NCBI GenBank assembly: GCA_050173015.1
Contig: JBFXLE010000008.1
Coordinates: 105,036 to 169,035, forward strand
DNA from: Calditrichaceae bacterium
GTDB taxonomy: Bacteria; Calditrichota; Calditrichia; Calditrichales; JBFXGD01
Length of the DNA: 64,000 nt
Direction: 5' to 3'
Notes under the pieces: model-generated
The model's database searches: none
Seen by the model: only the letters and a program-made list of their open reading frames with translations
Told to the model about the DNA's origin: nothing
Shown: positions 2,359 through 49,057 of the stretch, in pieces
Numbering within the stretch: position 1 is the stretch's first letter
Layout of the letters: the number at the start of each line of letters is the position of its first letter
Translations under genes and position numbers: made by a program

Positions 2359-2486
2359 AGTAGTATTGAAAAGAATACGAGAAATAAATAAGATAAAAGA
2401 TTAAATTAAAAATTTAATATGAGTACAGACTTTGAATCGGAAAACAATTGATCCACAAAAATGAATGAATTAAGAAGGCTGACGAC

Positions 2487-3545: not shown

Positions 3546-3586
3546 TATTTGTTAAAGCCGGTTAGTTGCCTTACCTCAAATTTTTA

Positions 3587-4813: not shown

Positions 4814-4853
4814 GGATACTCCAAATTTAGACAATGAAACTCAACAAAATCTG

Positions 4854-24095: not shown

Positions 24096-25106
24096 TCAGA
24101 TGATCGTCCAGCCATATTTAATCAGAGCAATCAGAAAAGTGTAGGCTATAAAGCAGAATAAACTTGTTTTAATAAAGCGGATTTTCATCATTCCGGCTAT
24201 ATCAGAAATACTATTATTTTTCGAAAAGAACACCATTAAACCGGCGGACATCCCCGTCAAACCGCCGGTGAAAAGTAATCCATAAAGAAGGTAACCCACA
24301 TGTAGGTAATTTGCCCAAAGCATATCAAAGGGACAGTGATGCGAAGGCATCGCGTAAATGTATTTTGAAAAATGAACGATAAGCGCGTCCAACGCGGCGA
24401 TAAACAAGAGTGGTGAAAGCAGACCCGTCACATAACCGGTTCGCTGAAGAAGTTTGGTCTGCCGCTTTTTCAAGCCAAGCACAGCGAGTATGACATAGAA
24501 AATCAGCAATCCGTAAAAAAGATATACTTTTACTGATTCATTATCGCTGCTGTCAAAAGAATTTTGTGACATCGGGTTGTCACTGAATGAAATACTGCAG
24601 CAGGTAGTGATGATATTTGGATTAATATTAAGATAGTACTGAACTTCCGAATAAATTTGTATAAATATAAACGGGATCAGTACCAGCAGCAGATAAAATT
24701 TTTGACGGGTGAGTGGAAATTCAGGGATCTTCTGATCAAGATTATTTATAACAAGCCATAACCCGTAAATAAAAAATCCGCCTATCTTGAGGTAAAGCGT
24801 CATCCAACCAAAACTATTTGTATTTAAAGCGCCCGTTCCGCACATGGCGCCCTTGATCAGCGCCGGGAAATGATCATTTACGGTCACGACAAAAAGCAGG
24901 AGCGAGATCATCTGAAACCCGAACACATAATTCATCACGGTCGATACAAGATGTGTTTTTCTTTCCAGCAGAAGCTGTTCATCCGTCGATGACTGAATAT
25001 CCCATTTTCGGGCGATCTGAACTCCGATGCCGACCGCATAGACGGAGAACACAAGCACAAAGATATCTCCGATCAGCATTACGATGACCCACAGATCGGT
25101 CAGCAT
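24096..25106 (-). CDS. Polytopic membrane protein with Cys/His motifs, function unknown
   Basis: About 8 hydrophobic segments; GAMCGTG, TTCCS, SHHCPF; start abuts the stop of the ABC ATPase. Confidence 0.8.
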   Translation of the reverse strand: MLTDLWVIVMLIGDIFVLVFSVYAVGIGVQIARKWDIQSSTDEQLLLERKTHLVSTVMNYVFGFQMISLLLFVVTVNDHFPALIKGAMCGTGALNTNSFGWMTLYLKIGGFFIYGLWLVINNLDQKIPEFPLTRQKFYLLLVLIPFIFIQIYSEVQYYLNINPNIITTCCSISFSDNPMSQNSFDSSDNESVKVYLFYGLLIFYVILAVLGLKKRQTKLLQRTGYVTGLLSPLLFIAALDALIVHFSKYIYAMPSHHCPFDMLWANYLHVGYLLYGLLFTGGLTGMSAGLMVFFSKNNSISDIAGMMKIRFIKTSLFCFIAYTFLIALIKYGWTII

Positions 25107-25799
25107 CTATTCATGCTCCCCATCGACCAGGTGACCGTCCCTCATACAAATGATGCGGCCTATCAGATCCGATTCATACACAAGGGGATCATGAGTGGCA
25201 ATGATCTGCGTTTTACCCTGTTCTTTAAGATCCCGGAAAATATCCATAATCTGTCCGGATAATTTTGTGTCAAGATGAGCAGTCGGTTCGTCAGCCATGA
25301 TAATTTCCGGATCGGTAATCAATGCCCGGGCAATGGCCACGCGTTGAGCTTCGCCGCCGGAAAGTGTATCAATTTTAAAATTCAGCCGGTGAGAAATATC
25401 CAGACTTTCGGCGATCTTCATCGTCCTCCTGTTGAGTTCTCCGATATTTGGTCCCGAGGGAATCATTGGGATAATGATATTCTGCGCCGCCGTCAGTCCG
25501 CTGATCAGATTAAAATTTTGAAATATAAATCCAATATGTTGTCTTCTGAACAAGGTCAGGAATTTCTCTGTCCATTTTGAGACCCTGTTTCCGAGGATAA
25601 TCACATCACCCGAAGTCGGTTTGGCCATGCACCCCAGCACGGCCATTAAAGTTGTTTTGCCTGATCCGGAGGGACCCTTGAGCGCTATGACTTCTCCTTT
25701 TTTTATATTTAAGTCAACACTTCGAACAGCATCGACCTCATTGACTTTATCCTTATTAAAAGTTTTTGACAGTTTTTGAGTCACAATCATATCAGGCAT
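25107..25799 (-). CDS. ABC ATP-binding protein, LolD/MacB type
   Basis: GPSGSGKTT, IGFIFQNFNL, LSGGEAQRVAIARAL, ADEPT, ATHD. Confidence 0.92.
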   Translation of the reverse strand: MPDMIVTQKLSKTFNKDKVNEVDAVRSVDLNIKKGEVIALKGPSGSGKTTLMAVLGCMAKPTSGDVIILGNRVSKWTEKFLTLFRRQHIGFIFQNFNLISGLTAAQNIIIPMIPSGPNIGELNRRTMKIAESLDISHRLNFKIDTLSGGEAQRVAIARALITDPEIIMADEPTAHLDTKLSGQIMDIFRDLKEQGKTQIIATHDPLVYESDLIGRIICMRDGHLVDGEHE

Positions 25800-26955
25800 G
25801 CATCACCTCCGAAGGGTCAATGACCGCCGCTTTCCAGGATGGTATCATCGTCGCGGCGATATAAGGCACAACAGCAAGAACCAGAATCAGAAGCACACTG
25901 CCGATTTGCACGACCGGCAGCAGATTAAAATCGGGATAAATTACCGACCAGCCGACTAAAAACGGCTTTAACAAGGGCGCCTGAAATATAAAATCATGCG
26001 CATACGCGCCGATTAATCCAATAAGAGTCGCGGTTAGCGAAATGGATATACCTTCCCAGAATTTTAGTAAGAGTATATCCGATATTTCCCAGCCGACAGC
26101 CTTTAGTATTCCCAGTTCTTTTTTTGCTTCTGCTGAGATACCGGAGGCTCTTTGCCAGGCCAGAATCATATAGGCAAAAAGGGAAATCAGCAGTCCGAAC
26201 ATAAACAAGCCCCCTCGATACCCAAACAAAGCTTCGTAGGTTGATTTTATTTCCGATTTTGTAACAACTCTCACGGAAGCAAAACGGCGGTCAATTTTGC
26301 GGCTGATATTTTCTATTTCATCATCATTGAAAACATAGACGGAAAGATCGCTGTAATCTTTTTGTTTCAATCCGACAATCTTTCGCGCGTCTTCTATGGG
26401 AAGGATGATCAAATCCCTGGTCAGCAGATCCGATGGTGAGCTAAACCGGCCGGTTATCGTAAAATTATGCAGATTTTCATCCGTGTCAAAAAGGCTCAGG
26501 TTGTCCTGAAGTCTCAGGTAGTGCGTCTCCATAAAACCGGTTCCGCAAACCGCTATTCCCCGGTCACCGGGTTGAATTCCCTTTCCTTCCACTATGGTGA
26601 GATCTCCGGTAAGAGAATCAGCTCCGATTAAGGTAAACACTCCGCCGGTGGGTGAATCAAAATAATACCCCCAAACGCGCGGAACAACCGATTTAATACC
26701 TCGTATTTCGCTGATACTCTGCGCAAGACTGTCCGGTATTTCAACCATTCGGCCCGCTTTGATCTTCTGCACCGTAATATCGGGCGCGGTGCTAAGCACC
26801 TGCTGTGTTTCATATGACAGCGACTGGATAAAAAAGACAATGGAAGCGTAAGCAAATACAACCACCGAAAATATGGTGATAACTCCAAGATGCCATTTCC
26901 AGTTACGCCGCATTGATGTTAAAAAGAATGCCAGAATAAATAAATGCCGTCTCAT
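25792..26955 (-). CDS. ABC permease, FtsX/LolE/MacB type
   Basis: One TM, large periplasmic domain, then three TM; ELGILKAVGW, PSWKAAVIDP. Confidence 0.88.
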   Translation of the reverse strand: MRRHLFILAFFLTSMRRNWKWHLGVITIFSVVVFAYASIVFFIQSLSYETQQVLSTAPDITVQKIKAGRMVEIPDSLAQSISEIRGIKSVVPRVWGYYFDSPTGGVFTLIGADSLTGDLTIVEGKGIQPGDRGIAVCGTGFMETHYLRLQDNLSLFDTDENLHNFTITGRFSSPSDLLTRDLIILPIEDARKIVGLKQKDYSDLSVYVFNDDEIENISRKIDRRFASVRVVTKSEIKSTYEALFGYRGGLFMFGLLISLFAYMILAWQRASGISAEAKKELGILKAVGWEISDILLLKFWEGISISLTATLIGLIGAYAHDFIFQAPLLKPFLVGWSVIYPDFNLLPVVQIGSVLLILVLAVVPYIAATMIPSWKAAVIDPSEVMHA

Positions 26956-27320
26956 TTCTTATTCCCGTTGATTGGAATTTTGTTTTTAGTGACAACAGTT
27001 TGTGAAGATTGCATCATTTTTACCTGCGAAGGCGGCCAAAAAAACGTGGATGTCGGAAAATGATCCAAAAATCCGGGGATATCCTGAAAAGCCGCGGCCG
27101 GTTCCGGCAGAGCAATATGTCGGGTATGTCTTGATTCCGTTGTCACACACATATCGGTAAGATGCAGCAGCCTGACAATCTCAGCTTCCTCAACCAATCT
27201 CTGCTCATTCGATACTACCGCGCGACTGTGCAGAACGAGAATGGTGAAAATCACAATCAGCATAACCGTTAAAAAAGCATACATTTTCAGAATTATAAAA
27301 TCACGATCAAGACCGGTCAT
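26952..27320 (-). CDS. Small membrane-anchored hypothetical protein
   Basis: One TM followed by LTDMCVTTESRHTRH...DHFP; overlaps the permease start. Confidence 0.7.
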   Translation of the reverse strand: MTGLDRDFIILKMYAFLTVMLIVIFTILVLHSRAVVSNEQRLVEEAEIVRLLHLTDMCVTTESRHTRHIALPEPAAAFQDIPGFLDHFPTSTFFWPPSQVKMMQSSQTVVTKNKIPINGNKK

Positions 27321-27329: not shown

Positions 27330-28184
27330 TCATTTGTCGCTAACCTTCTTCATGAATTCAATTATTTCAACGGATGTCAGTAACTTCCCACGGTGAATTT
27401 TGATAAATTCTTCAGCAATCATTTTTTCTTTAAATGCCAGTACGGGCATTTTTCCCGCGTTCAGAAGCACATTACTGTTTATTACAAACCATGCTTTTTC
27501 CATTCCGAAGGGAAAACCCGTTGTAAAATTTATGACCCTGATATTGCTTAAATTACCGCCGTCCATTTTAATCTTCGCGCATTTAAGACCACATGCGTTA
27601 ACGATCCCTTTATCCGTGATTATTTCCAGGCGTGAAAGTTGTTTTTCATATACGGGTTGCTCACAGTGGTAGCAAACCCCGATTTTTTCCCCGGGCTCAG
27701 GATAAAACACTCTTGAATAATCGTTCACACTGTTTTCTCTAGCCAGTTTTAGGATCGATTCCGTTCCGAAAATTGATCCGCCATGCTGACTGACAAAATA
27801 AACAGCCCTGTCTTGCCGGTCAAATACCATCACAGGAAATATAGCGTTCGCCGGATAATGATTTCCCCCAAGAACAAAAATCGCGTTTGCCGCGGAAATC
27901 ATCCGGCCCGAATAATATTCTTTTACATACATGTCAGCATACCGGTCTGAATTGTCGATAAGTTTTATCGCGCATGGCAGCGAGCAGGCATATTCCGGAT
28001 CCTTCCCCTTAAGAATCAAATCAACTTTGGTCATCATATTCTCATAAATATCTGCTCCGCAATTTATACATGTACTGATTTTTTTACCCAGATCAGGTTT
28101 GAAGAATTTATCAGCTTCCCCTGAAATGGCGCTTGCGGCCATGACAAACATCAGAAAAACGATATACCATTTCTTATATGACAT
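27330..28184 (-). CDS. Secreted protein with two tandem NosL-like metal-binding domains
   Basis: Signal peptide; repeats CINC...CSLPC and CYHC...CGLKC, each ending A..F...H.G. Confidence 0.8.
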   Translation of the reverse strand: MSYKKWYIVFLMFVMAASAISGEADKFFKPDLGKKISTCINCGADIYENMMTKVDLILKGKDPEYACSLPCAIKLIDNSDRYADMYVKEYYSGRMISAANAIFVLGGNHYPANAIFPVMVFDRQDRAVYFVSQHGGSIFGTESILKLARENSVNDYSRVFYPEPGEKIGVCYHCEQPVYEKQLSRLEIITDKGIVNACGLKCAKIKMDGGNLSNIRVINFTTGFPFGMEKAWFVINSNVLLNAGKMPVLAFKEKMIAEEFIKIHRGKLLTSVEIIEFMKKVSDK

Positions 28185-28989
28185 TGGTAACCTCCTGTGA
28201 ATGATATGAATTTACCGCGGCAGCAGCCGCTCCTATAGCCGTCGTAACCTGGGGCTGTCTGCATATTACCACCGGCCTCATCAGTTCATCTTCCAACGCC
28301 GCCAGCATACCTCTGTTCAAGGCGGCGCCGCCATCAAACAGGATGACATCTTCGACCTTTACCCTCCCCGCTAAACGGGCAATCCTTCTCGCTATGGAAT
28401 AATGGATGCCGGCCGCGATCTCGCTTTTGCTATGTCCCGCGGCCAGAAGAGAGATGATTTCTGATTCCGCGAAAACAGCGCATGTGCTGTTTATCGGCAA
28501 TGGCTGATCAGCGCTTTGAAAATGTAGTTCGGCAAATTCGGAAAGATCTACTTCCAGATTTCTTGCGGCCATTTCCAGAAACCGTCCCGTCCCGGCCGCG
28601 CATTTATCGTTCATTACAAAATTGCTCACATGACCATCAGGATCTAGTTCAATCACTTTGGCATCCTGTCCGCCAACATTTATAATCGTCCGTATATTAC
28701 CCGATTCACGGCATGTCAGAACCGAACCCATGGCGTTGGCTGTTATTTCATTGATTGATTCATCACTGTCCTTAAACAGCTTCCTTCCATAGCCCGTTGA
28801 GACCGTGTAAAGCAATTCATCCCTGTTCAGGTTGTTTTTATCCAGCAGCGTCTGCAGCCCGTCCGCCGCGTTTTTATTAAAGCTGCTGCCGGTAGGAGAT
28901 GTGCCGGTGGCAATTAATTGAAGTGAATCATCAAGCAGGGCAATTTTTATCGCGCTTGATCCGATATCAATTCCCGCGTAATAAGACAT
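28174..28989 (-). CDS. ATP-dependent [4Fe-4S] activator/reductase (HgdC/BcrA/DCCP-R, ASKHA family)
   Basis: GIDIGS, TGYGR, GGQDAK, MNDKCAAGTGRFLE, STCAVFAESE. Confidence 0.93.
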   Translation of the reverse strand: MSYYAGIDIGSSAIKIALLDDSLQLIATGTSPTGSSFNKNAADGLQTLLDKNNLNRDELLYTVSTGYGRKLFKDSDESINEITANAMGSVLTCRESGNIRTIINVGGQDAKVIELDPDGHVSNFVMNDKCAAGTGRFLEMAARNLEVDLSEFAELHFQSADQPLPINSTCAVFAESEIISLLAAGHSKSEIAAGIHYSIARRIARLAGRVKVEDVILFDGGAALNRGMLAALEDELMRPVVICRQPQVTTAIGAAAAAVNSYHSQEVTNVI

Positions 28990-30286
28990 TCTCTGTCTCC
29001 GAATGGTTTTTCCGTTTTTTCAATTTTATTGATTCGAGAAACGCTTCTATTCTAGTTGATAACTGTCCCGCGTCTTCAGGGCTGTAATCGGTTTCAATAT
29101 AAAGCATGGGTATTCCTTCATCGGAAAGCAGTCTGCCTGTTTTACGTGATTCCAGTTCATAGAGCTGACACCCCGCGAATGCCTGATAAATGACCCCGTC
29201 CACCGCAAACTGCCGGACATTGTCTAACAACTTCCGGAATCTGTCTGAATTCGGAGTGAAATTCGGACAGGTCCCCGGCTTAAGATAGCGGTCCGCGATC
29301 GCCGGAATCATATCATATAAATACCACTCATCCACGGCAACAGTGTCATAAAGCAAGCGCGTGGTCGAACAAAATTCTTCTGTAACCACAATTCCCCCCA
29401 GTTTTTCGATTAAAACGGGAAGTTTCATGTTTGGAAATATTGACGGCGATCCTGTCAGAAGAATTCGCGGAGCTCTTTCAGCGGCGACAGCGCGCCTTTC
29501 AATTTTTCTTGCCTCCATCTCATCATTCAGGCGGGATAAGGCCGCGGTCCATGACATGATATCATCAAAGAAAAAGGTGTTTGATATGAGTATGGCGTCT
29601 TTTCCGCCAATAACCGGCAACGTTTTGCGATTTTCATTGAACCTTCGGAACTGATTTTGCGCCTCAGCCACCATTTTTATGGAGTCGCGCAATCTGCTTC
29701 TCGTTATCCTTTGGCCGGTCACTTTTTCAAGCTTCAGAACCAGTTTTTTGACTGCCCCCTGCCAATAGAAACGGGCCTCTTCACTATCTTTTGTCGGCGG
29801 TACTTCGAGAGTGTAAAATTCGGCGTCAATGTCTTCGACGACTTCCGGGAGCTTCTTTTTTTGATCACAGGTTGTTGGATTTATAATCAGATCCGGCTTT
29901 ACATTTCGAGCGAATGTATTCGCGTATAGTGAGCCCAGAGTGGATTTAATCAATGGACATGTTTTGGCGGGAAGAAATTCGGCGCCTATGGTATCTGTCG
30001 CATAAGCCCCGGAACATATCCGAACCGGGATCGCTCCCGCCGCATAGATTAGTTCCAGCGGGACGTGAATACACATTGTCGCGATGACTTTTTTTCCGTT
30101 GGGATTAAATCCTGAACTATCGGAATACCATTTCAGCTTATCATAAAAATATTCCATCGCTTTCAGATTCTCCGGAAAATCATCCATGATCTCCCGAAGG
30201 CTCTTATTTGATTCCATACGAAGATGAACCGCCGCCGTTTTTTTGATGCGCTCTTTTCTGTTTAAAGTGTCGCTCATTTCTCCCAT
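28967..30286 (-). CDS. Double-cubane-cluster-type anaerobic reductase (2-hydroxyacyl-CoA dehydratase D-component family)
   Basis: MCIHVP, TCPLIKS, TTCDQKKK, PRILLTG, EEFC, TCPNFTPN, GCQLY, ETDYS.ED.GQL.TRIEAFLE match the recalled DCCP pattern; overlaps the activator gene. Confidence 0.85.
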   Translation of the reverse strand: MGEMSDTLNRKERIKKTAAVHLRMESNKSLREIMDDFPENLKAMEYFYDKLKWYSDSSGFNPNGKKVIATMCIHVPLELIYAAGAIPVRICSGAYATDTIGAEFLPAKTCPLIKSTLGSLYANTFARNVKPDLIINPTTCDQKKKLPEVVEDIDAEFYTLEVPPTKDSEEARFYWQGAVKKLVLKLEKVTGQRITRSRLRDSIKMVAEAQNQFRRFNENRKTLPVIGGKDAILISNTFFFDDIMSWTAALSRLNDEMEARKIERRAVAAERAPRILLTGSPSIFPNMKLPVLIEKLGGIVVTEEFCSTTRLLYDTVAVDEWYLYDMIPAIADRYLKPGTCPNFTPNSDRFRKLLDNVRQFAVDGVIYQAFAGCQLYELESRKTGRLLSDEGIPMLYIETDYSPEDAGQLSTRIEAFLESIKLKKRKNHSETENVLLRGN

Positions 30287-31278
30287 CCGGTCACCTCCGA
30301 TTTTTCGGTAACATTAAATCTTTTAAAAAATCCTTTTTCAGTCGATGTAAATACCGGCATGGTCAGAATCGACACCTTAAGACAATCGTTCTCAGGGCAG
30401 GCTTCAACGCATTTAAAACACATCATGCAGTCATCCCGTACAATATTTTTACTTTCAATATCATCCGCGATTTCTTTGATCCCCACATCACACACACGAT
30501 GACAATTTCCACAACGGGTGCATTTCGATCCATCCTTGGTCAGCCTCAGTAATGATGCTTTTGAAAATATATATTGCAGCGCGCTCATTGGACAGAAAAA
30601 ACAAAAAAACCGCTTTTTCACAAACGAACCTGTGATGAACAGACCGGTCACAATGAGTCCCAGTGTGGACATAATGATGGTCGTACCCGAACTGAAATCT
30701 ACCGCGAACTGCGATGTATCACCTGAAAATAAAGGCAAAACCGTTCTACCCGGACAAACCTGGCAAAACGGAGCGGACAGATCATGTGAAAATTTTGGAA
30801 GGCCGAAAAGTGAATTGCTCATCCCTAAAGGAATCAGAATAAGGAGAATCAACAGAATGTATTTTATCTTCTTCAGATGTTTAAAGGTTAGTTCATCGTA
30901 TTTCGAAAAACGGACACCCGTTTTCTTTCGTAATCCGGTAATCCAGTCCTGAATCGTACCCAGAGGACAGATATACCCACACCAGGCTTTGTTAAAGAAA
31001 ATGAAAAGGATAAAGAATACAACAATTCCGTTCAGCAAAGCTATACCGCGCCAGCTAAACAGGCTGCTCCAGGTTGTATGCAACCTGTGTTGCAGGCTTA
31101 TCAGGAAACAGGTCCCTGCGCTGCCCTGATTATAAGGACAGGCAAAAGTCGGGATCTGGTCACTTATGTGGATAAAATAGTACCCGCCGTAAATCAGCAC
31201 CAGAAATGCCGCTAGCTGAAAGTAAAATCTGAACCGGCTGATATTCGAAAAATTGATATAATCGCTGATTCTATTCAT
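30274..31278 (-). CDS. Membrane 4Fe-4S binding protein (NapH/MauN/YccM-like)
   Basis: TM helices, WCGYICPLG, FCQVCP, FCFFCP, CTRCGNCHRVC, CMMCFKCVEACP. Start ATG 31278 overlaps the upstream stop. Confidence 0.88.
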   Translation of the reverse strand: MNRISDYINFSNISRFRFYFQLAAFLVLIYGGYYFIHISDQIPTFACPYNQGSAGTCFLISLQHRLHTTWSSLFSWRGIALLNGIVVFFILFIFFNKAWCGYICPLGTIQDWITGLRKKTGVRFSKYDELTFKHLKKIKYILLILLILIPLGMSNSLFGLPKFSHDLSAPFCQVCPGRTVLPLFSGDTSQFAVDFSSGTTIIMSTLGLIVTGLFITGSFVKKRFFCFFCPMSALQYIFSKASLLRLTKDGSKCTRCGNCHRVCDVGIKEIADDIESKNIVRDDCMMCFKCVEACPENDCLKVSILTMPVFTSTEKGFFKRFNVTEKSEVTGWEK

Positions 31279-32251
31279 TGAATGTGACCTCCCGGTACGG
31301 TACTTTTTTCCGCTCGCGATAGTAAAAAACAGCAACGGCAGCCAGGGAAAGCGCGAATACAAAAACGATCATTGCCCAGACCGCGGAAGAATACATCATT
31401 TTTGACGGAATATAACTTTCCGAAAATGTGGCAGTATACCGGACGCGCTTATAGGAACTGCCGTCAAATTCACCGTTTTCGGTAATGTCATGTTCGGATA
31501 CAATCAAAAAATTAAATATTTTTTGTTTCTCAAATTCAGATAACGTTGAAAAATAGTCCTCCGGTATTTGAAATGTCACTTCTCCGTTTTTATCCGATTC
31601 TGCTAATTTAGCCCATCCGGTTTGGGTGATGAGTTTTACCTTTGAACCTGAAACCGGGGTTCCGTTAAGATTTAATTTGAAAGTTACTTTGTCACCGGAC
31701 TGAATAAAGGTATGGAAATCCTCCCGGGGAAGCCTGTTTCTTATGACTTCATATGGGATATGACTTTTCAGGTCCTTGGGTTGAAGATTCGCAAGCACGT
31801 GTTTGTGCCCGTTTTGACATTTATGACTCAACCGTTCCGCTTTCGCGCTGATTATGTGCAGCGTATCTCCGGATACATATTTTTTCGTAAGATAAAGATT
31901 GTAGAATCCCTCCAGATTGCCGTTGTATATTATGGTCCCTTTCTCAAACTCACAGTCAATCAATTTATTTTCAGGTGAGAGGAGATGGACTCGCGCATTT
32001 ACGGATGGCGGGCCGGTTAAATATTCTGATTCTCCGGGCAGTGTCCCCGCCCGTATCCATTGTATGATATGAAAGACTCCCCTTTTACCGTTCCCCGGGA
32101 CGGAAGAGATTTTATGCATTCCGAACGGCTGAATTTTCTTATCCGCGTCTTTCGGCGGAACATTTGATATCCAAAAAGTATTTTCCGCTTTTAAAGACGC
32201 GCCCTGAAAAATCAGAAAAATCGCAAAACAATAATAAATATATTTTTTCAT
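31271..32251 (-). CDS. Secreted, C-terminally anchored protein (DUF4198-like, putative metal handling)
   Basis: Signal peptide, HKCQNGHKH, Ig-like 'GDKVTF..NG.PV...SDKNGEVTF' segment, C-terminal TM. Confidence 0.65.
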   Translation of the reverse strand: MKKYIYYCFAIFLIFQGASLKAENTFWISNVPPKDADKKIQPFGMHKISSVPGNGKRGVFHIIQWIRAGTLPGESEYLTGPPSVNARVHLLSPENKLIDCEFEKGTIIYNGNLEGFYNLYLTKKYVSGDTLHIISAKAERLSHKCQNGHKHVLANLQPKDLKSHIPYEVIRNRLPREDFHTFIQSGDKVTFKLNLNGTPVSGSKVKLITQTGWAKLAESDKNGEVTFQIPEDYFSTLSEFEKQKIFNFLIVSEHDITENGEFDGSSYKRVRYTATFSESYIPSKMMYSSAVWAMIVFVFALSLAAVAVFYYRERKKVPYREVTFNE

Positions 32252-32317: not shown

Positions 32318-34549
32318 TTAAAATTTTAATCCCGCCGTTATGGTGACATTAACCGGGTAACCGGGATAGTAAGATTCACTCCAGACGCCCCTGCTGTAAC
32401 TGGCGTAAGCCCATGTAGCGTAATTTGTATCAAATACATTGTTTACACTCAAAGACGCGAAATAACGCCGTGTTTCATATGACAGTTTGGTGTTTACAAT
32501 ACCGTATCCGCCATATAGATGTACATTTTCATTGTCCATATAATATTTATCTACCCATTTCCAGCTTATATCCGCGCTCAACCCTGAAGAATGAACATAG
32601 CGCAGATCGGCTCCAACCTGATGGCGGGGTGTTTTCCTGAGATAATTATCATTGTAATCCTGGGAATTATCAAAACGGGCCTCTAAATACGCGTAATTCA
32701 ATGAGAGTATCAGAGATTCCACTAATTTCAGATTTCCCGCAAATTCAACTCCTTTATGAATGGTCTCACCGACATTCTCGTATTTTCCTGAAATCTCATC
32801 CTTGATAATCTGATCGGTAAAGTTCATCGCAAATAAGGAAACCTGGTAATCAAATCTCCGTGATATCTTTCCCCGCGCGCCTATTTCATAATTCGTCAGA
32901 TACTCGGATTTCAAATCCGGATTGGGTACCACCCCATATCCGCCAATAAATAACTGAGAAATTTGCGGAGGGTTGAAACCCCGTCCGACATTGGTGTAGA
33001 TAGTTAAAAATTTGAATGGATTATAGGATAATGCCAGTTTTGGACTCCAGGCGCTGATTGTGGCGACATCCGAAGTATTTCCGTCGTCGGGGAGACGATC
33101 ATCCCAATCATAATGAACACGGTCGTATCTGAGTCCGAATGAAAGCATCAGGGGATTGGAAATCTGAAAATCATTTTGCAGGTAATACCCATTGATATCA
33201 TAGATACTTGTTCCCTTATCCGTCATATCCGTCTTGACACCAAATTCGTCAAGATCAAATGTTTCGGAATCACCGTTTTCCCGCTCAGCAGTGATTCCGC
33301 CGATAAGAGAATTTCTTTTCCCAAGGATAAAAAATGATCGCTGCAGTCTTATTTCACCGCCAAAAAGATTGATGTCATCTTCGCTGGTGAAGGTATCGTT
33401 ATAACCGCCTTCATCCATGCAATTTCTGAAAAATAAATTGGAATTCAGGTCGAATCCGGATGAAAAATGTTTTTTATGTGTGATTCCAAGCCTGAAAAAC
33501 TCCTTTTTGCTTCCCGCGAATTTATTTTCGTTTGCTGTTTCGCGCGCTTCGAACTGCTCCTTAGAGAGAGAACCGGGAAAATCGGTATCACTCCGGATAT
33601 AGTCCAGCGACAGCATCATATTACCCAATCGCTCGTAATCGGTCTGGAGTTTTGCGGCGAATTTATCCGCGTTGTATGAATTTCTGTCTCTGTACCCGTT
33701 TGTGGAATGATCCGACGCGCTGAGATATATCCCGTACTGGCCTAATTGGCCGCCGGCGCTCATAGTAAATTTTTTTAAATCGTATGCGCCGAATGATGAT
33801 TCTATTTTGCTTTCAAATTTTTTCGGGGCCTTTTTTGTGACGATATTGATAACCCCCGTAATACCATTTGGACCGTATAATGCTGATACCGGACCCTTCA
33901 AGACTTCAATCTTTTCGATATTTCCAAGATCAATCCCTTCAAAATCAACCCTTCCCATTGCTTCATTAATGGAAATCCCGTCAACCAGTACTAAAATTCC
34001 CCTTGTCACATGAGAATGCAGTCCCACACCGCGGAAACTCACCACATTATATTCTGAATGAAAACGGTCTTCAGTAAAAACCCCCGGAATTTTCTGAAGC
34101 ATGGTCTCCACATTTCTCATTTCGGCCTGTTTTATATCATCCATTGAGACCAGATATACCGAGGCCGGAATATCTTTTATCTCTTTTTCCATTTTTGTCG
34201 CCGTTACAACGACTCTTCCTTCTGATTCATAAATTATCGGATTAAGACCGAAATTTATTGTTGTAGTTTCACCTGCATTCACCCGGATGTCTTTTCTCAC
34301 CACTTTTTCATATCCGATCAACAATGCTTCAAGGGTGTAAACGCCGGGTTTGACATTACGAATTTCGTAATTACCGGCATAGTCGCTTACATCCCCGAGA
34401 TATTCGCCTGTAATGTATATTTGTGCTTCCTGGAGTACGGTATTTGTTAAATTGTCATTCACATTCCCTTTAATGACACCGAATTCCTGAGCAAAAATTA
34501 TATTTGCGAACAGAATCAGTAAAAACCCCCCAGATGTGAAATATTTCAT
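32318..34549 (-). CDS. TonB-dependent outer-membrane receptor
   Basis: N-terminal carboxypeptidase-regulatory-like domain, VVVTATK, IEVLKGPVSALYG...GVINIVTK plug, NPDL.SE, NNVFD, terminal Phe. Confidence 0.95.
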   Translation of the reverse strand: MKYFTSGGFLLILFANIIFAQEFGVIKGNVNDNLTNTVLQEAQIYITGEYLGDVSDYAGNYEIRNVKPGVYTLEALLIGYEKVVRKDIRVNAGETTTINFGLNPIIYESEGRVVVTATKMEKEIKDIPASVYLVSMDDIKQAEMRNVETMLQKIPGVFTEDRFHSEYNVVSFRGVGLHSHVTRGILVLVDGISINEAMGRVDFEGIDLGNIEKIEVLKGPVSALYGPNGITGVINIVTKKAPKKFESKIESSFGAYDLKKFTMSAGGQLGQYGIYLSASDHSTNGYRDRNSYNADKFAAKLQTDYERLGNMMLSLDYIRSDTDFPGSLSKEQFEARETANENKFAGSKKEFFRLGITHKKHFSSGFDLNSNLFFRNCMDEGGYNDTFTSEDDINLFGGEIRLQRSFFILGKRNSLIGGITAERENGDSETFDLDEFGVKTDMTDKGTSIYDINGYYLQNDFQISNPLMLSFGLRYDRVHYDWDDRLPDDGNTSDVATISAWSPKLALSYNPFKFLTIYTNVGRGFNPPQISQLFIGGYGVVPNPDLKSEYLTNYEIGARGKISRRFDYQVSLFAMNFTDQIIKDEISGKYENVGETIHKGVEFAGNLKLVESLILSLNYAYLEARFDNSQDYNDNYLRKTPRHQVGADLRYVHSSGLSADISWKWVDKYYMDNENVHLYGGYGIVNTKLSYETRRYFASLSVNNVFDTNYATWAYASYSRGVWSESYYPGYPVNVTITAGLKF

Positions 34550-34634: not shown

Positions 34635-35120
34635 CTATTTTTGTTTGTTCTTTTCAGCCATTCGCTCCATTCTGATTGCTGTGGCGGTTTTTATCATTTC
34701 TAAACCGGTTAAATAGGTACCGCCGTAATGCCCGATAAAAAATTCAGCATTTTCACTGCTTCTGAATGAAAAAGTCGGCATCATGGCATAAGCGGGGAGA
34801 ATGTTGCTGCCGACCACAAAACTGGCATCGTTCATTTCTATCAGATCACCCGTATAGAAATCCTTTACTTTTACGGAAGTGTATTTAGTTTTGTCCATCA
34901 ATGCTGTCGCGCAGCCCACGGCGCAGGCATGTGTTACCGGGCCCCCGTCAAGTGACAATTCAATCCGAGTCCACATCTTTTCATAAACATCCATTCCGCA
35001 AATGGGGCAGGATCCGATTTTATCACCCAGATCCGGCTTCAGAACCGCGCCGGCGTTTTGTGAGTACCCGATAGCCATAAATAATAAAATGCAAATTATG
35101 ATTAATTTTATCGATTTCAT
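34635..35120 (-). CDS. NosL-like secreted metal-binding protein
   Basis: Signal peptide, CPICGM, HACAVGC, FVVGS...AMMP...F...YGG. Confidence 0.8.
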   Translation of the reverse strand: MKSIKLIIICILLFMAIGYSQNAGAVLKPDLGDKIGSCPICGMDVYEKMWTRIELSLDGGPVTHACAVGCATALMDKTKYTSVKVKDFYTGDLIEMNDASFVVGSNILPAYAMMPTFSFRSSENAEFFIGHYGGTYLTGLEMIKTATAIRMERMAEKNKQK

Positions 35121-35163
35121 TTTTAATCTCCGTTTTACTTTTTAAAGATTAATTTTGAATGAA

Positions 35164-35649
35164 TTACATTTCCTGTCCAACAGACAGTCTCATCAACAAA
35201 TCCCATGTGACTTCGTCAAATTTTAACATTTTACTACCCTGATGATCCTCCCTGAATTCTTCCGCGTCCGTTTTTGTTTTTAGCGGCACCAGTTCATTCC
35301 CCATCGGCCCAAGAATATCGCTGTCAATCACAAAAAAGGCGCTGTCGGCTTCTACCCACTGCAGTTCATAATATTCGCGAACATATATTTTCACCGGTTT
35401 TTGTTCAGCGGACCCTCCGTATTTTTCCGGATGCAGAAAATATTTAAACATATCTTTTGGACCGTCAAAAAACTTCACCATCCCATCCGCATAAATCATT
35501 TCAGCAATCCATTTCGGATAGGGGTGAACAAACATGGCGCAAACCGGACAGCGATCCTTCTCACCGGGCATTTTTGGATTTTGATCAGCAGCCTCCGAAA
35601 CAAAAACAACCAGGAGAAGCGACAAAATGATTATTTTGATTTTTTTCAT
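35164..35649 (-). CDS. NosL-family protein
   Basis: RCPVCAM, FFDGPKDM, SDILGPMG, F.EDHQG. Confidence 0.88.
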   Translation of the reverse strand: MKKIKIIILSLLLVVFVSEAADQNPKMPGEKDRCPVCAMFVHPYPKWIAEMIYADGMVKFFDGPKDMFKYFLHPEKYGGSAEQKPVKIYVREYYELQWVEADSAFFVIDSDILGPMGNELVPLKTKTDAEEFREDHQGSKMLKFDEVTWDLLMRLSVGQEM

Positions 35650-35712
35650 TTATAAATATCCTTTAAATCTTGTGTTCAAAAGACAAGCGTTATTATTGTT
35701 CCCCCACAGGAC

Positions 35713-36234
35713 TCAGGGACCGTTCTGACTTGCTGTCTTATTTTCAGTTCGGCGGCCAATTCTGTCAAAAATATATTGTTCTGTAAGCCACCCGACATAA
35801 ACCTCGAGAATCACACCTTCCCTGCTTAGTACAAAAGTAGTGGGGATTCCTTTGATTTTGTAGCGCTTCGCGGTTTTTGCGTACTCATCCACCAGCATTG
35901 GAAAAGTCACGTTAAATTCAATCTGAAAATCCTCCACATGATATTTGCTCTGTCCAACATTTACGCAAAGAATTTCCGCCTGCGCCATATCGCCAAACTT
36001 CTCATACGAGTTCTGCATCACCGGAAACTCGGAACGACATTCAGAGCACCAATCCCCCCAAAAATGAAGAAGGACTATTTTCCCTTTATAGTCATTTAAT
36101 GATACTTCCCTGCCGTTTACGTCATTTAGAAGAAAATCAGGCGCCTGCTCACCGATTTCGGGCATTCTATCACCGCATCCCATCATCATCATGAGAAAAA
36201 GGGTGATGATCCCCGTCTCTGAGATTTTTTTCAA
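35713..36234 (-). CDS. TlpA/ResA-like thioredoxin lipoprotein
   Basis: MMGC lipobox, APDF.L, FWGDWCSEC, GIPTTF. Confidence 0.92.
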   Translation of the reverse strand: MKKISETGIITLFLMMMMGCGDRMPEIGEQAPDFLLNDVNGREVSLNDYKGKIVLLHFWGDWCSECRSEFPVMQNSYEKFGDMAQAEILCVNVGQSKYHVEDFQIEFNVTFPMLVDEYAKTAKRYKIKGIPTTFVLSREGVILEVYVGWLTEQYIFDRIGRRTENKTASQNGP

Positions 36235-36317
36235 TTTCAGATACTCCGAAATAAATTCCGTCTCATAAAAACGGGATATTAATCAAGTTTTATTAATTAG
36301 AAGACTAAAGGGATGGA

Positions 36318-36695
36318 TTATTCGGGTGGATGATAAATATCCTTCTGTAAAACAGGGATACTCAAAAAATCATTTTTTGGTTTTAACAGGGTTTGCTTAT
36401 CGGGGATTAAAAGCAAATTTTCAAAAAACATTAATTTAGCGGTTAGATCCATAACCACCGGAACAATCGTACTCATGCGTGAAGCACAATGCGTAAACCC
36501 GATCAGGCCGGCCTCATCATCACAGGTGCATTTTGTCATATCACCATTGCATCCGCAATTGCAATAATGGACCAAATCCGGAAGCGCTTCCGCCTGCCGG
36601 AAGGCTTCCTGAATGACAGGTACTCCGGCCATATTAAAAATGACCAGGAAGCTCATAAATAACGCCAGGATTTTTTTCCGATTGACCCGATTCAT
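36318..36695 (-). CDS. Cys-rich small membrane protein ending in HPP (putative CruR/DUF2946-like regulatory upstream ORF)
   Basis: N-terminal hydrophobic segment, HYCNCGC...KCTC...HC (6 Cys), C-terminus DIYHPPE. Confidence 0.65.
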   Translation of the reverse strand: MNRVNRKKILALFMSFLVIFNMAGVPVIQEAFRQAEALPDLVHYCNCGCNGDMTKCTCDDEAGLIGFTHCASRMSTIVPVVMDLTAKLMFFENLLLIPDKQTLLKPKNDFLSIPVLQKDIYHPPE

Positions 36696-36713
36696 TTTAA
36701 ACCAATTTTGATA

Positions 36714-37547
36714 TTACAAATCTTTGTTTGAAAATATTTTTATCGCCAGCGCCAGCGGCAGACCGCCCCATGCCAGCAATGCCGTAAATAATACCAGAAA
36801 TCCGCTTCCCGTTCCGCCTACAAACTTTAATACCGCCCCTGCCGTAGGCCCGAACATGATCTTTCCGCCCAGAACAAACAAGGTTCCTACCCTTACAAGA
36901 TCAACCGGATTTCCAAAAAGCATTCCAAAAAGCACATTACGGAGTACGTTTCCCTCAAAACTGGAAGCCAGCCACATGACAAGCAAATCATAAAGAATAA
37001 CAAATATGAACCAGACAAATAAACCGATACTGAGGGCTTGTGTTCTTTTCATAGTGATCACACTTATCAGCGCGGAAATACTTAAAAATATCAACCCTAA
37101 AACAAGACTCAGCAAAACAAAAGCGATATACGCCGTCAGATCACTCGCGCCCGCTCTCCATCCGATGACCATACCGGCGGCGCCGAAACCGATACCTGTG
37201 GAAATCACTATAGCGAGAAACAAACCAAAATACTTCCCCAGCAGATTTTCTGATCGCAATACCGGCTGTGATATCTGAAGCTGCAGTGCTCCCGGTTCAT
37301 CCGACGCAAAGCTCATTGCTCCCAGAATTAGAGCTACCAACGGGACAAGGTAAAGATTCAAATTTAATAAACTCGCTGTTGTGCGGATAAAATCCTGGAA
37401 ACCGGTAAATCCTGATATTTTTGTGCCCGCGAAACTGATTGTAAGAGCGATTACAGCAAATACCACCGAAAAAATCATCACCCAACGGCTACGGATTACC
37501 GAGAGTAATTCCTGCATGGCAATTGAATTAATTATTTTAATATTCAT
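36714..37547 (-). CDS. nosY: NosY ABC permease for CuZ maturation
   Basis: RTTASLLNL, YLVPLVAL, GKY.G, YDLL, NPVDL.R; downstream of nosDFL. Confidence 0.9.
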   Translation of the reverse strand: MNIKIINSIAMQELLSVIRSRWVMIFSVVFAVIALTISFAGTKISGFTGFQDFIRTTASLLNLNLYLVPLVALILGAMSFASDEPGALQLQISQPVLRSENLLGKYFGLFLAIVISTGIGFGAAGMVIGWRAGASDLTAYIAFVLLSLVLGLIFLSISALISVITMKRTQALSIGLFVWFIFVILYDLLVMWLASSFEGNVLRNVLFGMLFGNPVDLVRVGTLFVLGGKIMFGPTAGAVLKFVGGTGSGFLVLFTALLAWGGLPLALAIKIFSNKDL

Positions 37548-38307
37548 AGGATTCCTTTGTCTCTTCTGCCAGATGCGCTCCCGTTACAATGAGCCTGCCA
37601 ATTATTTTATCTGAATTATTCTCAAAAATATCAAAGCGGTCGCCGGGCTTATCAACCTTTAATCTGTACATTCTTGATTCCCCGTATGGAATTTCCATTT
37701 GCAATTCAGGATAATTCAGGATACTGATTGACGCATCCTTTTCTGTCCGGTTCGATATACGAATCTGTACTATCTGATTCAGAGTTGCTTCAAATACTTC
37801 CGGAGTGAGCTTATTCTGGATATAATCCGCCCGGACATATAAATCCGGTTCCTGATATTCGTCCCACATTTTATTCCATGAGAGAATTTCGCCCTCGCGG
37901 ATTGTATTTTTAAATTTCAGCGCTGCCGCCGAATCGCTAAAAGTCGTAACATTAAAGTCCATGACAGGAGTGCGATAATCACCCCTGACAAAGAGAGCGC
38001 TGTCCGCGGCAATCCAGTTTTTTGTGTCAAAGGCAATCACATAAAATTTGAGTATATTATTTTTCTCCCTCACGTGGCCGCCGGAAAAATACTGTACCAT
38101 GCAGATGGGATGATCAAATTTTATGATCTCTCCATTTATTTTGATTAATTCAGCGGCATACTCAAAATCAAGAATCTCCATCCGGCAGGTTATACAAATA
38201 TCACCCTTTTCAACCGGTACGGGCTCACCCGAAATGCTCCCGCATCCCGTAATCAATGAAAAGATGGCACTTAATATGGCCTGACCGATCCATTTTTGTA
38301 TGCTCAT
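37537..38307 (-). CDS. nosL: NosL copper chaperone lipoprotein with C-terminal cupredoxin-like extension
   Basis: ITGC lipobox, CITCRM, FDHPICM, TPVM; extra ~100 aa beta-rich tail. Confidence 0.85.
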   Translation of the reverse strand: MSIQKWIGQAILSAIFSLITGCGSISGEPVPVEKGDICITCRMEILDFEYAAELIKINGEIIKFDHPICMVQYFSGGHVREKNNILKFYVIAFDTKNWIAADSALFVRGDYRTPVMDFNVTTFSDSAAALKFKNTIREGEILSWNKMWDEYQEPDLYVRADYIQNKLTPEVFEATLNQIVQIRISNRTEKDASISILNYPELQMEIPYGESRMYRLKVDKPGDRFDIFENNSDKIIGRLIVTGAHLAEETKESYEY

Positions 38308-39212
38308 TCCTGAATATTCTCCGAAAATATCCTGTTGTAAACATATTCCAGCGTCGGGTCTTCCGTCCAGAAACGCTCTATTTTTGCCCCGGCTTTACGC
38401 AGAATTTCCAGCAAATTAGGACGTTTGTCGGCTTCAACAACTACCCGGAAAATGTCACCTTCGATTTCAACTTCCCTCGCTCCGTTCGCAAGAAGCAGAT
38501 CCTTGTATTCCGGTTGTGTATTAAGAAATACAATAATCATTCTGGCATCGGCGTCAGATGTTCTCTTTAATTCAAGCGCGTCTTTTACGGCAATCAGCCG
38601 GCCGTCTTTCAGAAGAGCGATTCGGTCCGCCAGTTGTTCCGCTTCGCTCAACAGATGTGTGGCCATGACAATAGTGCATTTTCTGGCTTTAATCTCCCTC
38701 ACGAGTTCTTTAAACTTGGCCACGCCCTGCAGATCAAGGTTTATGGTTGGCTCATCAAGGATGTAGACGTTAGCCGGAGACAATTTCAATAATCCTAGAC
38801 CAAGCCTCTGAACCATTCCCCCTGAAAACACCCCGACAAATTTATCCGTTGATCCGTTCAGATTGATATCTTTTAAAATCTCATTAATATGAGTCTGCGG
38901 TTGTTGTCTTATTTTCGAGTGATACAAAAGAATCTCTCTGGCCGTCAAATTATCCGGAAATGACAGCCTCTGGGGCAAAAACATCATATTTTTTTTAACT
39001 TCCCTTGGATATTTCCAGACATCGGTGTCATTGACTAAAATCTGTCCGGTTGTGGGCTTGATAAGCCCAATGATCATTTTTAATAATGTCGATTTTCCGC
39101 TGCCGTTCGGACCAAGCAGAGCAAAGGTCTCTCCGGGTTTTATGTCAAGATCGACGTTATTAACAGCAAGCGTATCTTTGAATTTTTTTGATATATTTCT
39201 GATCTTTATCAT
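38304..39212 (-). CDS. nosF: NosF ABC ATPase
   Basis: GPNGSGKS, FSGGM, LDEP; lies between nosD and nosL. Confidence 0.9.
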   Translation of the reverse strand: MIKIRNISKKFKDTLAVNNVDLDIKPGETFALLGPNGSGKSTLLKMIIGLIKPTTGQILVNDTDVWKYPREVKKNMMFLPQRLSFPDNLTAREILLYHSKIRQQPQTHINEILKDINLNGSTDKFVGVFSGGMVQRLGLGLLKLSPANVYILDEPTINLDLQGVAKFKELVREIKARKCTIVMATHLLSEAEQLADRIALLKDGRLIAVKDALELKRTSDADARMIIVFLNTQPEYKDLLLANGAREVEIEGDIFRVVVEADKRPNLLEILRKAGAKIERFWTEDPTLEYVYNRIFSENIQE

Positions 39213-39228
39213 AATCCGTCCGGGATAA

Positions 39229-40650: not shown

Positions 40651-40720
40651 TTTTTCCCATCATTTTAAACAGATTGATTTTATACTATTATAAGAGACTC
40701 AATCAATAAAACCTGAAATC

Positions 40721-41149
40721 TTATTTCCGCCAGGTTTCTTTCTCTCCGAGATTCTGCTTCTGGGCGATTTGCCCTCTCACCGCGGCAACCCCTGCCTTTA
40801 TCATCCATTGAAGCGCCTGATCAAGATCCTCCGTCATCTGATAAGTACAAACCTTCTTTTCATCCATATCTTTCTTCACTTTTTCCATAAAGGCCAGCGC
40901 TTTTTTCTCCCACATTTTAGCATCTTTAATCTCTTCAAATACGAGAGTATTCATTTTTCTGGACTCAACATCCTTTATGACAGAGTCAACGATGTTTTGT
41001 GTCGCTGTGCATTCGTTATATTTTGACTCACATTCCTTCATATCGAATTTTTTTACCTTGTACTGTGCCTGAACCGGCGCGACAAGAAAGATGCCAAGAA
41101 ATAACATCAGCACCATCCAGGCGGGATTATATAATTTAAAACCTTTCAT
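40721..41149 (-). CDS. Hypothetical secreted helical Met/Cys-rich protein inside the nos cluster
   Basis: Signal peptide ending VQA; 7 Met and 3 Cys in the mature part; GAGGAG RBS; between nosB and nosD. Confidence 0.7.
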   Translation of the reverse strand: MKGFKLYNPAWMVLMLFLGIFLVAPVQAQYKVKKFDMKECESKYNECTATQNIVDSVIKDVESRKMNTLVFEEIKDAKMWEKKALAFMEKVKKDMDEKKVCTYQMTEDLDQALQWMIKAGVAAVRGQIAQKQNLGEKETWRK

Positions 41150-41152
41150 TAT

Positions 41153-41797: not shown

Positions 41798-41856
41798 TAG
41801 TAACTCCTTAAAAATGCCTTTACCGGGCTCCTTCTGCAAATGATCAACATCCTGAA

Positions 41857-45139: not shown

Positions 45140-45156
45140 TATATATACTCCGCCTA

Positions 45157-46539: not shown

Positions 46540-46555
46540 ATTGATACTCCAAAAC

Positions 46556-47071: not shown

Positions 47072-47086
47072 TTAACTCACCTCTCA

Positions 47087-49024: not shown

Positions 49025-49057
49025 AGATACAGTTTTACAATTTTTTCCAGGTGTTAA

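Follow-up and report, generated by a model that had tools for sequence, protein, structure and literature searches.

Our analysis of a 64,000-nucleotide stretch of Calditrichaceae bacterium DNA (positions 105,036 to 169,035 of contig JBFXLE010000008.1, hereafter the window) concerns a run of minus-strand genes that includes one for a protein of the double-cubane protein (DCCP) type. A sequence-only reading of this DNA had singled out three genes between 28174 and 31278, for an ATP-dependent activator, the DCCP-like protein and a membrane iron-sulphur (FeS) protein, and all three minus-strand open reading frames (ORFs) are confirmed at those positions. A single HGD-D gene is present among the window ORFs scanned, as that reading had it, and it overlaps the genes on both sides, its partner activator by 23 nt and the membrane FeS gene (called NapH-like below) by 13 nt. 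The NapH-like gene overlaps by 8 nt the gene for a 326-amino-acid (aa) protein of the DUF4198 fold, a GGAGGT stands ahead of the DCCP ATG, and the activator gene shares 11 nt with the NosL-domain gene downstream of it. These genes belong to a tightly packed minus-strand array that leads from a nos (nitrous oxide (N2O) respiration) cluster through a TonB-dependent receptor, the 326-aa protein, the NapH-like protein, the DCCP and the activator to a set of tail genes. The three genes are real, but the conserved unit to which they belong, which the sequence-only reading did not see, is five genes long; the four inner genes of this cassette overlap one another in the window.

The extent of the unit is apparent from its relatives. 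An alignment of 18 members of the DCCP subfamily gave subfamily-specific peptide patterns, and these found 74 loci (individual loci are given L numbers below) in other, species-representative genomes, all of them metagenome-assembled genomes (MAGs). ORFs were called in the 74 loci and compared with the window proteins; each count given here takes in the loci whose sequence extends far enough on the side concerned. The NapH-like gene stands ahead of the DCCP gene in 63/63 loci with room for it, a TonB-dependent receptor lies upstream in 49/49 loci that have at least 4.5 kb of upstream sequence, a DUF4198-like homologue is present in 59 of 60 (it is absent from L069), and 63 of 65 have the activator gene after that for the DCCP (it is absent from L059 and L062). 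The unit is five genes, encoding a TonB-dependent receptor, a DUF4198-type protein, a NapH-like protein, the DCCP and its activator, and their order is fixed across several phyla; carriers include Bacteroidota, Calditrichota, Ignavibacteriota, Nitrospirota, Thermodesulfobacteriota, Campylobacterota, Leptospirales and others. Genes for TonB (25 loci), ExbB (22) and ExbD (20) recur after the cassette, as does one for a membrane protein of the DsbD_2 family (gene calls give 24 loci, an ORF search 35). The last is found in none of the 28 loci of the Bacteroidota/Ignavibacteriota/Calditrichota type (FCB type, assigned from the taxon names of the records), and all four neighbours are the setting of the cassette in phyla other than these.

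The HGD-D protein matches its Pfam family with E 4.3e-92 (309.7 bits). Among NCBIfam models it marginally meets the cut-off of the double_cubane model NF040772 (350.2 bits against 350), and the next families score far lower, BzdN at 112.7 bits (cut-off 454) and HadC at 86 bits (cut-off 700). Its best solved structures are likewise the DCCP entries 7yyl_C and 6eno_A (E ~1e-69), followed by BzdN (5e-27) and a HadC-type dehydratase beta subunit (7e-18). The motifs quoted in the sequence-only reading are all present in the translation (ATMCIH, KTCPL, PTTCDQKKK, EEFCS, GTCPN and AGCQL); the six cysteines it took as DCCP-like are there, but it missed a seventh cysteine of the family, C91 in RICSG. 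The seven (C72, C91, C110, C140, C306, C340 and C373) are each kept in 71/71 subfamily members, and in the alignment to the DCCP structure which that reading had proposed, all of them fall on cysteines of 7yyl_C. Their spacers of 18, 18, 29, 165, 33 and 32 residues lie within one residue of the published DCCP ranges, given as CX19CX18-19CX29CX166-170CX32-34CX32C (10.1101/2022.07.06.499078). A 2-hydroxyacyl-CoA dehydratase or class I benzoyl-CoA reductase was considered and rejected, there being one HGD-D subunit, no CoA-transferase in the operon and HadC and BzdN scores under the cut-offs. The CoA-transferase was sought with Pfam and NCBIfam scans, and its lack near these genes had been noted before; an acyl-CoA dehydrogenase-like gene does occur about 20 kb away (49972-51669). 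Judged by these cysteines, the single gene and the family scores, the window protein is of the DCCP type and not a dehydratase, as had been supposed.

A scan of 1.84 billion representative sequences returned 2953 relatives of this protein at E<=0.001 and 227 at E<=1e-30. In a FastTree analysis of the window protein, every second one (35) of the 70 full-length locus proteins and the 96 full-length sequences among the 150 representatives listed, the window protein, all 35 locus proteins and six unlabelled representatives form one clade with an SH-like support of 100. Proteins of the CDGKKK type fall outside this clade, save one representative (P0131) that lies within it. IQ-TREE recovered the same clade with 100/100 support from 53 rows, in which 12 of the 35 cassette proteins were kept along with 40 of the 96 representatives. 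The subfamily carries CDQK[KR]K where other DCCPs have CDGKKK. On the strength of the trees and this motif the cassette DCCPs are a distinct subfamily that forms a single clade, which bears out what the sequence-only reading had suspected from one gene pair.

The activator belongs to the BcrAD_BadFG family (Pfam E 5.3e-53, 180.7 bits; TIGR00241 at 231.6 bits against a cut-off of 125.4). Its closest solved relatives are HadI (4eht, 1.7e-55) and HgdC (1hux, 3.8e-51), and the DCCP reductase DCCP-R (7yyl_E, 2.2e-38) comes fourth. Both cluster cysteines are present, in the motifs DKCAAGTG and STCAVFAES. The INVGGQD that had been remarked upon in the window activator is also there, with Asn where the nucleotide-binding motif xDxGGQD usually has Asp; 64/64 cassette activators have N[IV]GGQD at this place, whereas all five solved activators, DCCP-R included, have Asp.

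The NapH-like protein is as conserved as the DCCP itself, with a mean column identity of 62% in an alignment of 31 sequences. Its ORF is counted from an ATG, although the frame is also open from a TTG at 31362. The Fer4_5 match is clear (E 4.7e-13, 49.3 bits against a Pfam cut-off of 22), and the cut-off of no NCBIfam model is reached: 75 bits for NapH (TIGR02163, cut-off 213), 24 for NosR and 20.1 for CcoG (TIGR02745, cut-off 316.7). Sixteen cysteines are invariant, namely C47, C57, C100, C104, C172, C175, C226, C229 and those of two CxxCxxCxxxC motifs. Four transmembrane (TM) helices are predicted, three of them scored by hydropathy and the fourth, at about residues 17-38, below threshold and read by eye. 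By hydropathy and charge bias, two of the pairs (C47/C57 and C172/C175) would face the periplasm, and the cytoplasmic side would hold the Cys-Pro pairs (C100/C104 and C226/C229) and the two [4Fe-4S] motifs. No solved structural relative was found (no Foldseek hit at E<=0.001 with a model of moderate quality, pLDDT 66.5), and 713 database relatives bear generic names alone. Two more specific identities were rejected: NapH or NosH proper, by the score under the TIGR02163 cut-off and the lack of a NapG-like gene in the window, and CcoG proper, by the score under the TIGR02745 cut-off and the lack of a fused FixG_C Ig-like domain, the resemblance to CcoG being architectural. From its sequence, the protein is a member of the wider PF12801 superfamily and a distant relative of NapH, NosR and CcoG. 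NapH-like proteins of PF12801 have been put forward as one of five classes of transmembrane electron carriers, and NapH proper is regarded there as a quinol-oxidising subunit (10.1101/2021.01.07.425746, 10.1101/2024.10.16.618771).

The 326-aa protein has a signal peptide, a large beta-rich domain, one TM helix at residues 291-309 that forms a C-terminal anchor, and a conserved cytoplasmic tail. No NCBIfam model is matched by it, and its Pfam score for DUF4198 (PF10670) is 22.8 bits, below the gathering cut-off of 34. The AlphaFold2 model (pLDDT 88) is more telling: Foldseek ranks first the Zn-, Cu- or Co-bound forms of Zcp (9mhl, 9mhm and 9mhn, E 4e-10 to 5e-9; probability 1.00 and a target-normalised TM-score of 0.64), followed by a Ni-bound DUF4198 protein (9gcb, E 1e-6). 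In a published account Zcp binds and buffers metal in the periplasm (PMC12663993). A motif H143-x-C145-x-x-G-H149 together with H180 has each of its residues in 32 of 38 aligned relatives. The modelled fold and this motif indicate that the protein is a probable DUF4198-fold periplasmic metal-binding component. The receptor's best solved relatives are YncD (6v81) and PqqU (9c4o), both at E ~1e-44.

Table 1. Features of the cassette and its surroundings in the window
Feature	Coordinates	Strand	Evidence
TonB-dependent receptor with N-terminal CarboxypepD_reg domain; first cassette gene	32318..34549	-	Pfam Plug and TonB_dep_Rec_b-barrel
Periplasmic DUF4198-fold protein, 326 aa; probable metal-binding component	31271..32251	-	Model fold, His/Cys motif
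NapH/NosH/CcoG-superfamily membrane FeS protein, 334 aa	30274..31278	-	Pfam Fer4_5 and Fer4_10
DCCP-type protein, 439 aa; single HGD-D gene	28967..30286	-	Pfam HGD-D, NF040772
ATP-dependent activator ("archerase", BcrAD/BadFG family), 271 aa	28174..28989	-	Pfam BcrAD_BadFG, TIGR00241
NosL-domain protein, 284 aa; lineage-specific addition	27330..28184	-	Pfam NosL, E 1.4e-11
Operon tail: 122-aa single-TM protein, FtsX/MacB-type permease, ABC ATPase, 336-aa seven-TM Cys-containing protein	24096..27320	-	Pfam FtsX, MacB_PCD, ABC_tran
Clade II nos cluster, directly upstream of the receptor	34635..43821	-	Pfam, NCBIfam

The N2O-respiration setting recognised in the sequence-only reading is well founded. 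The nos cluster (Table 1) comprises nosZ (41857-43821), two genes of no assigned function (one for a 4-TM protein), nosD, nosF, a NosL-domain gene, a nosY-like gene, and genes for a Cys-rich small protein, a TlpA/ResA-type thioredoxin and two more NosL proteins. The Sec-type NosZ (823 bits against 625) and NosD (381 against 300) exceed their NCBIfam cut-offs, the ABC genes are NosF- and NosY-like, and NosL-domain genes number four in the window (at 34635-35120, 35164-35649 and 37537-38307, and the one that follows the activator). Two of the NosL proteins, of 284 and 256 aa, are far longer than is usual for NosL, and the longer one carries CxxC motifs; so many putative Cu(I) chaperones around a single nosZ are unusual.

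The nos connection extends to other genomes. Genes for nos proteins lie beside the cassette in 9 of the 28 FCB-type loci, and in 8 of the 16 that have at least 4 kb outside the cassette (none of the four loci of unclear taxonomy has them). The cassette lies inside the nos cluster in L005, L019, L024 and L064, and likewise in L012 as far as the contig reaches. In L024 it is preceded by NosD (358 bits against 300) and an adjoining TonB-copper-type receptor (best family TIGR01778, 244 bits, below the cut-off of 472), and followed by a NapG-like gene (nosG), a true NapH-family nosH (233 bits against 213) and nosF-, nosL- and nosY-like genes. In L008 (1-4608) two tandem NosZ-like genes, at 646 bits (above the cut-off) and 427 bits (well below it), are divergent from the cassette, and in L044 and L070 genes of the nosF/nosL/nosY type flank it. 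In a Melioribacteraceae MAG (L015, 1-14942) the cassette comes after a P-type ATPase fragment, CcoNO, CcoP and a small protein, in that order, and is followed by a fasciclin protein and then by NosZ (943 bits). According to a review, ccoG, the gene for a cupric reductase of the same superfamily as the NapH-like protein, usually lies after the cbb3 genes (PMC7558416), and this is the position that the cassette holds in L015. CcoG is described there as having two [4Fe-4S] clusters and a periplasmic Ig-like domain.

What the parts might do together can be read from the characterised members of these families. Activators of this family are reported to use the hydrolysis of ATP to transfer electrons into the double-cubane cluster, a cluster that low-potential reductants of the dithionite type cannot reduce (PMC9351452). 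In benzoyl-CoA reductase the double-cubane cluster serves as an electron relay and store and not as the active site (PMC11971306), and papers of 2022 and 2025 still call the natural function of double-cubane proteins unknown (PMC9351452, PMC11971306). From the fixed gene order and the published proposals for PF12801 and PepSY/DUF4198 systems we propose a path that would run from the activator through the DCCP and the NapH-like protein to the periplasmic face. By ATP hydrolysis, as is established for the family, the activator would push low-potential electrons into the double-cubane cluster; the DCCP would hand them to the cytoplasmic [4Fe-4S] domain of the NapH-like protein, whose four cysteine pairs, disposed on both membrane faces, would take them to the periplasmic side. 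There a metal species imported by the receptor would be reduced, freed from its ligand and caught on the His/Cys site of the DUF4198 protein. In the genome of the window and in other FCB-type N2O reducers the metal would most likely be copper, which would pass to the NosL chaperones and NosDFY for the maturation of NosZ. In effect this would be a NosA-like import route with a CcoG-like reductase of its own. Of the three roles that the sequence-only reading had offered for the DCCP, that of an electron source for its membrane FeS partner fits best, in keeping with the unfailing place of the NapH-like gene before the DCCP gene.

The reading we prefer is that of a reductase of low potential, driven by ATP and connected across the membrane to the reductive uptake of a metal, in this genome probably copper for NosZ. 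We hold it tentatively and would not yet call it probable. Family membership, conserved motifs, fold, gene order and the link with nos are shown by the data; the protein contacts, the direction of the electrons, the metal and the reason for so low a potential we infer from gene context and motifs. Rather more doubtful is the claim that the cassette is the first physiological setting of a double-cubane protein: a new kind of TonB-dependent uptake in which low-potential electrons made with ATP are exported by a NapH/CcoG-like protein to free an otherwise unusable (tightly chelated or sulfide-bound) metal, in FCB bacteria possibly copper, as an accessory to the maturation of clade II N2O reductase and cbb3 oxidase.

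A number of observations weigh against these proposals. The reduction of Cu(II) presents no obvious need for an ATP-boosted, very low potential. Outside the FCB type nos genes lie beside the cassette in 0/42 loci (0/31 with a flank of at least 4 kb), no cuproenzyme genes occur near the cassette in these carriers, and many of them are sulfate reducers with little known copper demand. The receptor shows no conserved copper site: no Cys, His or Met column reaches 85% conservation among 51 aligned receptors, and an identity as a NosA/OprC copper receptor was rejected, since TIGR01778 is outside the best 25 of the 31 families listed and no OprC is among the 48 PDB matches. The six of the 38 aligned DUF4198 relatives that do not have the His/Cys motif are copies of the Sulfuricurvum/Sulfurimonas/Arcobacteraceae type (Campylobacterota). 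A PepSY_TM gene beside the cassette in three Sulfuricurvum/Sulfurimonas-type loci (it follows the activator in L054 and L058, and in L059 it stands upstream of the cassette, amid receptor genes) and a DtxR-type repressor adjoining it in L020 both point to iron. In L061 (322-5673; also in L053 and L074) a second, divergent module adjoins the DCCP-bearing cassette, with a receptor, a C-terminally anchored DUF4198-like protein, a NapH-like paralogue with the same Cys motifs, DsbD_2 and TonB. Since that module encodes neither a DCCP nor an activator, a DCCP cannot be a requirement in every case. Finally, the census, built on subfamily-specific peptide patterns, describes this DCCP subfamily alone.

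It is possible, if unlikely, that the same reductive-uptake machine serves iron (for example from low-potential ferric siderophores), or else nickel, cobalt or zinc, and that the nos and cbb3 neighbourhood in FCB-type genomes reflects co-regulation under anoxia. Ferric catecholates chemically need a very low potential, so an ATP-driven step would be better explained by them than by Cu(II) reduction. The DsbD_2 family is also named UreH-like, after a putative nickel permease. The best NCBIfam hit of the receptor is a siderophore-receptor subfamily (TonB-siderophore, 199.5 bits, under the cut-off of 223.5), and the PepSY_TM and DtxR-type neighbours just mentioned fit iron as well. The solved DUF4198 protein binds Ni, and Zcp binds Zn and Co as well as Cu. 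Moreover, PepSY-like carriers clustered with DUF4198 proteins, in 231 clusters together with TonB receptors, have been proposed to act in periplasmic iron reduction and assimilation (10.1101/2021.01.07.425746, 10.1101/2024.10.16.618771). Iron fits less well with the cassette's place within the nos clusters of at least four loci, between nosD and nosG and by a TonB-copper-type receptor, or with its place between the cbb3 genes and nosZ in L015; NosZ needs copper and not iron, and the conserved Cys of the DUF4198 motif suits a soft metal.

In a second alternative, which we also consider unlikely, the DCCP is itself the catalytic end-point, reducing a cytoplasmic small molecule or a ligand imported by the receptor (for example by cleavage of a metallophore), and the NapH-like protein feeds electrons from the quinol pool or the membrane to the activator. 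The activator does need an electron donor, and the cassette encodes no other. Quinol, though, is a poor donor for a low-potential [4Fe-4S] activator; the conserved core is without an inner-membrane importer for an organic ligand (DsbD_2 occurs in 35 loci, none of the FCB type, though the window carries a MacB-type ABC system); and the invariant Cys pairs on the periplasmic side, with the anchor and conserved tail of the DUF4198 protein, suggest a transmembrane assembly. In favour of such a role are the quinol-oxidising function ascribed to NapH proper and the report that the characterised DCCP reduces small molecules (acetylene, azide and hydrazine) at its cluster in vitro and has substrate channels (PMC9351452, PMC11971306).

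Far less likely than either is a NosR-like role, in which low-potential electrons would be exported to keep the copper centres of NosZ in, or return them to, the active reduced state in clade II organisms without NosR. In vitro, CuZ* is fully reduced only at very low potentials, the membrane protein is related, at 24 bits, to the C-terminal part of NosR, and the cassette does occur in nos clusters among the FCB-type loci, but this role would leave the strict receptor link and ExbBD-TonB unexplained, it does not suit the loci of other phyla, where nos genes are lacking, and clusters of the L024 type already have NosG and NosH beside the cassette. The least compatible of all with the linkage to a receptor and a metal binder, and extremely improbable, is the other part of what the sequence-only reading had suggested, the reduction of N2O or other N-N compounds without copper, or else the removal of NosZ inhibitors (acetylene, azide), an idea which has in its favour the in vitro activities just cited and the N2O-respiration locus in the window, but which fails in that the cassette is cytoplasmic and membrane-bound and comes in every case with outer-membrane import and a metal-binding protein of the periplasm, that freely diffusing gases need no receptor, that most carriers show no nos genes nearby, and that no sequence feature points to N2O.

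If reductive metal acquisition is indeed the function, the cassette would supply an electron donor for a membrane protein of the NapH/NosR/CcoG type (the activity of CcoG itself is reported with an artificial donor only; PMC7558416). It would also be a candidate copper-supply step in the maturation of clade II N2O reductase, which bears on the limits of N2O removal in sediments and wastewater, and in habitats that are anoxic, copper-poor or sulfidic it could set a limit to the consumption of N2O. The firm tie of the subfamily to a receptor, a metal binder and a membrane wire makes for a concrete, testable hypothesis with defined partner proteins. We found no account in the literature of a double-cubane protein in such a gene context, though related clusters may be listed in the supplementary tables of 10.1101/2022.07.06.499078 and 10.1101/2021.01.07.425746; the 74 loci all being from MAGs, we found no experimental work on the cassette.

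The remaining genes of the window are in part peculiar to its lineage. The closest locus elsewhere is L001, from a related Calditrichaceae MAG, which has nine genes in common with the window at 79-96% identity. Among the 74 loci it alone has a homologue of the NosL-domain gene after the activator (79% identity), and it alone shares the operon tail (82-93% identity). The 122-aa and 336-aa tail proteins matched no family in the Pfam and NCBIfam scans; the latter, with seven TM helices, bears CC and HHCP motifs. The tail genes may encode a second NosDFY-like periplasmic loading machine or an exporter. Between the nosY-like and thioredoxin genes lies a gene (36318-36695) for a Cys-rich, membrane-anchored protein of 125 aa with a dense Cys motif, CNCGCNGDMTKCTC, which belongs to no family found and is not similar to the small proteins encoded ahead of receptors elsewhere. 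These last include a family of about 125 aa with an N-terminal TM helix and a CxNxxKPxxxCxGxC-like motif, of no Pfam family, encoded just upstream of TonB-dependent receptors in Bacteroidota-type loci (L002, L010, L013, L015, L018, L022, L029 and L044). Directly upstream of nosZ (43907-49474) are genes for a cytochrome c, a cytochrome b, a Rieske protein, a GltD-like FeS flavoprotein and a MerR-type regulator, which probably make up the module that supplies electrons to this clade II nos cluster, one without nosG and nosH. Elsewhere in the window (51-4834) there are the C-terminal part of an [FeFe]-hydrogenase, two radical-SAM genes and a HydF gene (a maturation set of the HydE/G/F type), and a protease with a type IX secretion tail is also encoded; together these indicate an anaerobic (or facultatively anaerobic) organism of the FCB group. 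Scans for riboswitches and other RNA families found none in the window (seven loci gave just two tRNAs), and a promoter and terminator scan was uninformative, with 32 promoter-like sites against 28.8 expected. Reading the cassette genes through TGA in all loci led to ordinary C-terminal stops, with no in-frame TGA at a Cys position that would mark selenocysteine.

Among known systems the nearest is the DCCP and DCCP-R pair of Carboxydothermus hydrogenoformans (6ENO, 7YYL), with which the window pair shares a single HGD-D subunit, seven cysteines at near-identical spacing and an adjacent ATP-dependent activator with both cluster cysteines. Unlike that pair, the window DCCP lies in a separate clade with CDQK[KR]K in place of CDGKKK, its activator has Asn for Asp and scores higher against HadI and HgdC than against DCCP-R, and its subfamily is preceded by a NapH-like protein, a DUF4198 protein and a TonB-dependent receptor. 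The NapH-like protein resembles CcoG (FixG) in its Fer4_5-type TM region, Cys-Pro motifs and two [4Fe-4S] clusters, which in CcoG are combined with a periplasmic Ig-like domain and serve the maturation of copper enzymes (PMC7558416). The similarity to CcoG is weak (20.1 bits against the 316.7 of the cut-off), however, and here the counterpart of the Ig-like domain is a separate DUF4198-type gene product and a dedicated ATP-driven electron source is attached. With NapH/NosH and the C-terminal part of NosR the protein shares four predicted TM helices, a CX3CP motif, two C-terminal [4Fe-4S] motifs and an occurrence in nos clusters, but it reaches only 75 bits where the true NosH of L024 has 233, has no NapG/NosG partner in the window, has two extra invariant Cys pairs on the predicted periplasmic side, and has CX2CP for the second CX3CP.

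The pairing of a DUF4198-fold periplasmic protein with a membrane electron carrier, often with a TonB receptor, is also seen in the reported PepSY-like/DUF2271/DUF4198 clusters and recalls Zcp. In the cassette the carrier is an FeS protein of the NapH-like kind and the donor would be the ATP-driven DCCP pair and not NAD(P)H; no flavinylated DUF2271 protein or ApbE was seen; and the DUF4198 protein, unlike Zcp, is membrane-anchored, and its conserved His/Cys set (H143, C145, H149 and H180) differs from the three His of the Zcp site, whose pocket it may or may not share. The TonB-dependent receptor is, like NosA/OprC, encoded with nos genes, but it is without a conserved CxxxM-HxM-like site and is not an OprC/NosA orthologue, and loci of the L024 type have a separate TonB-copper-type receptor beside that of the cassette. 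The window protein is a recognisable member of the DCCP family, and what is new about it is its gene context.

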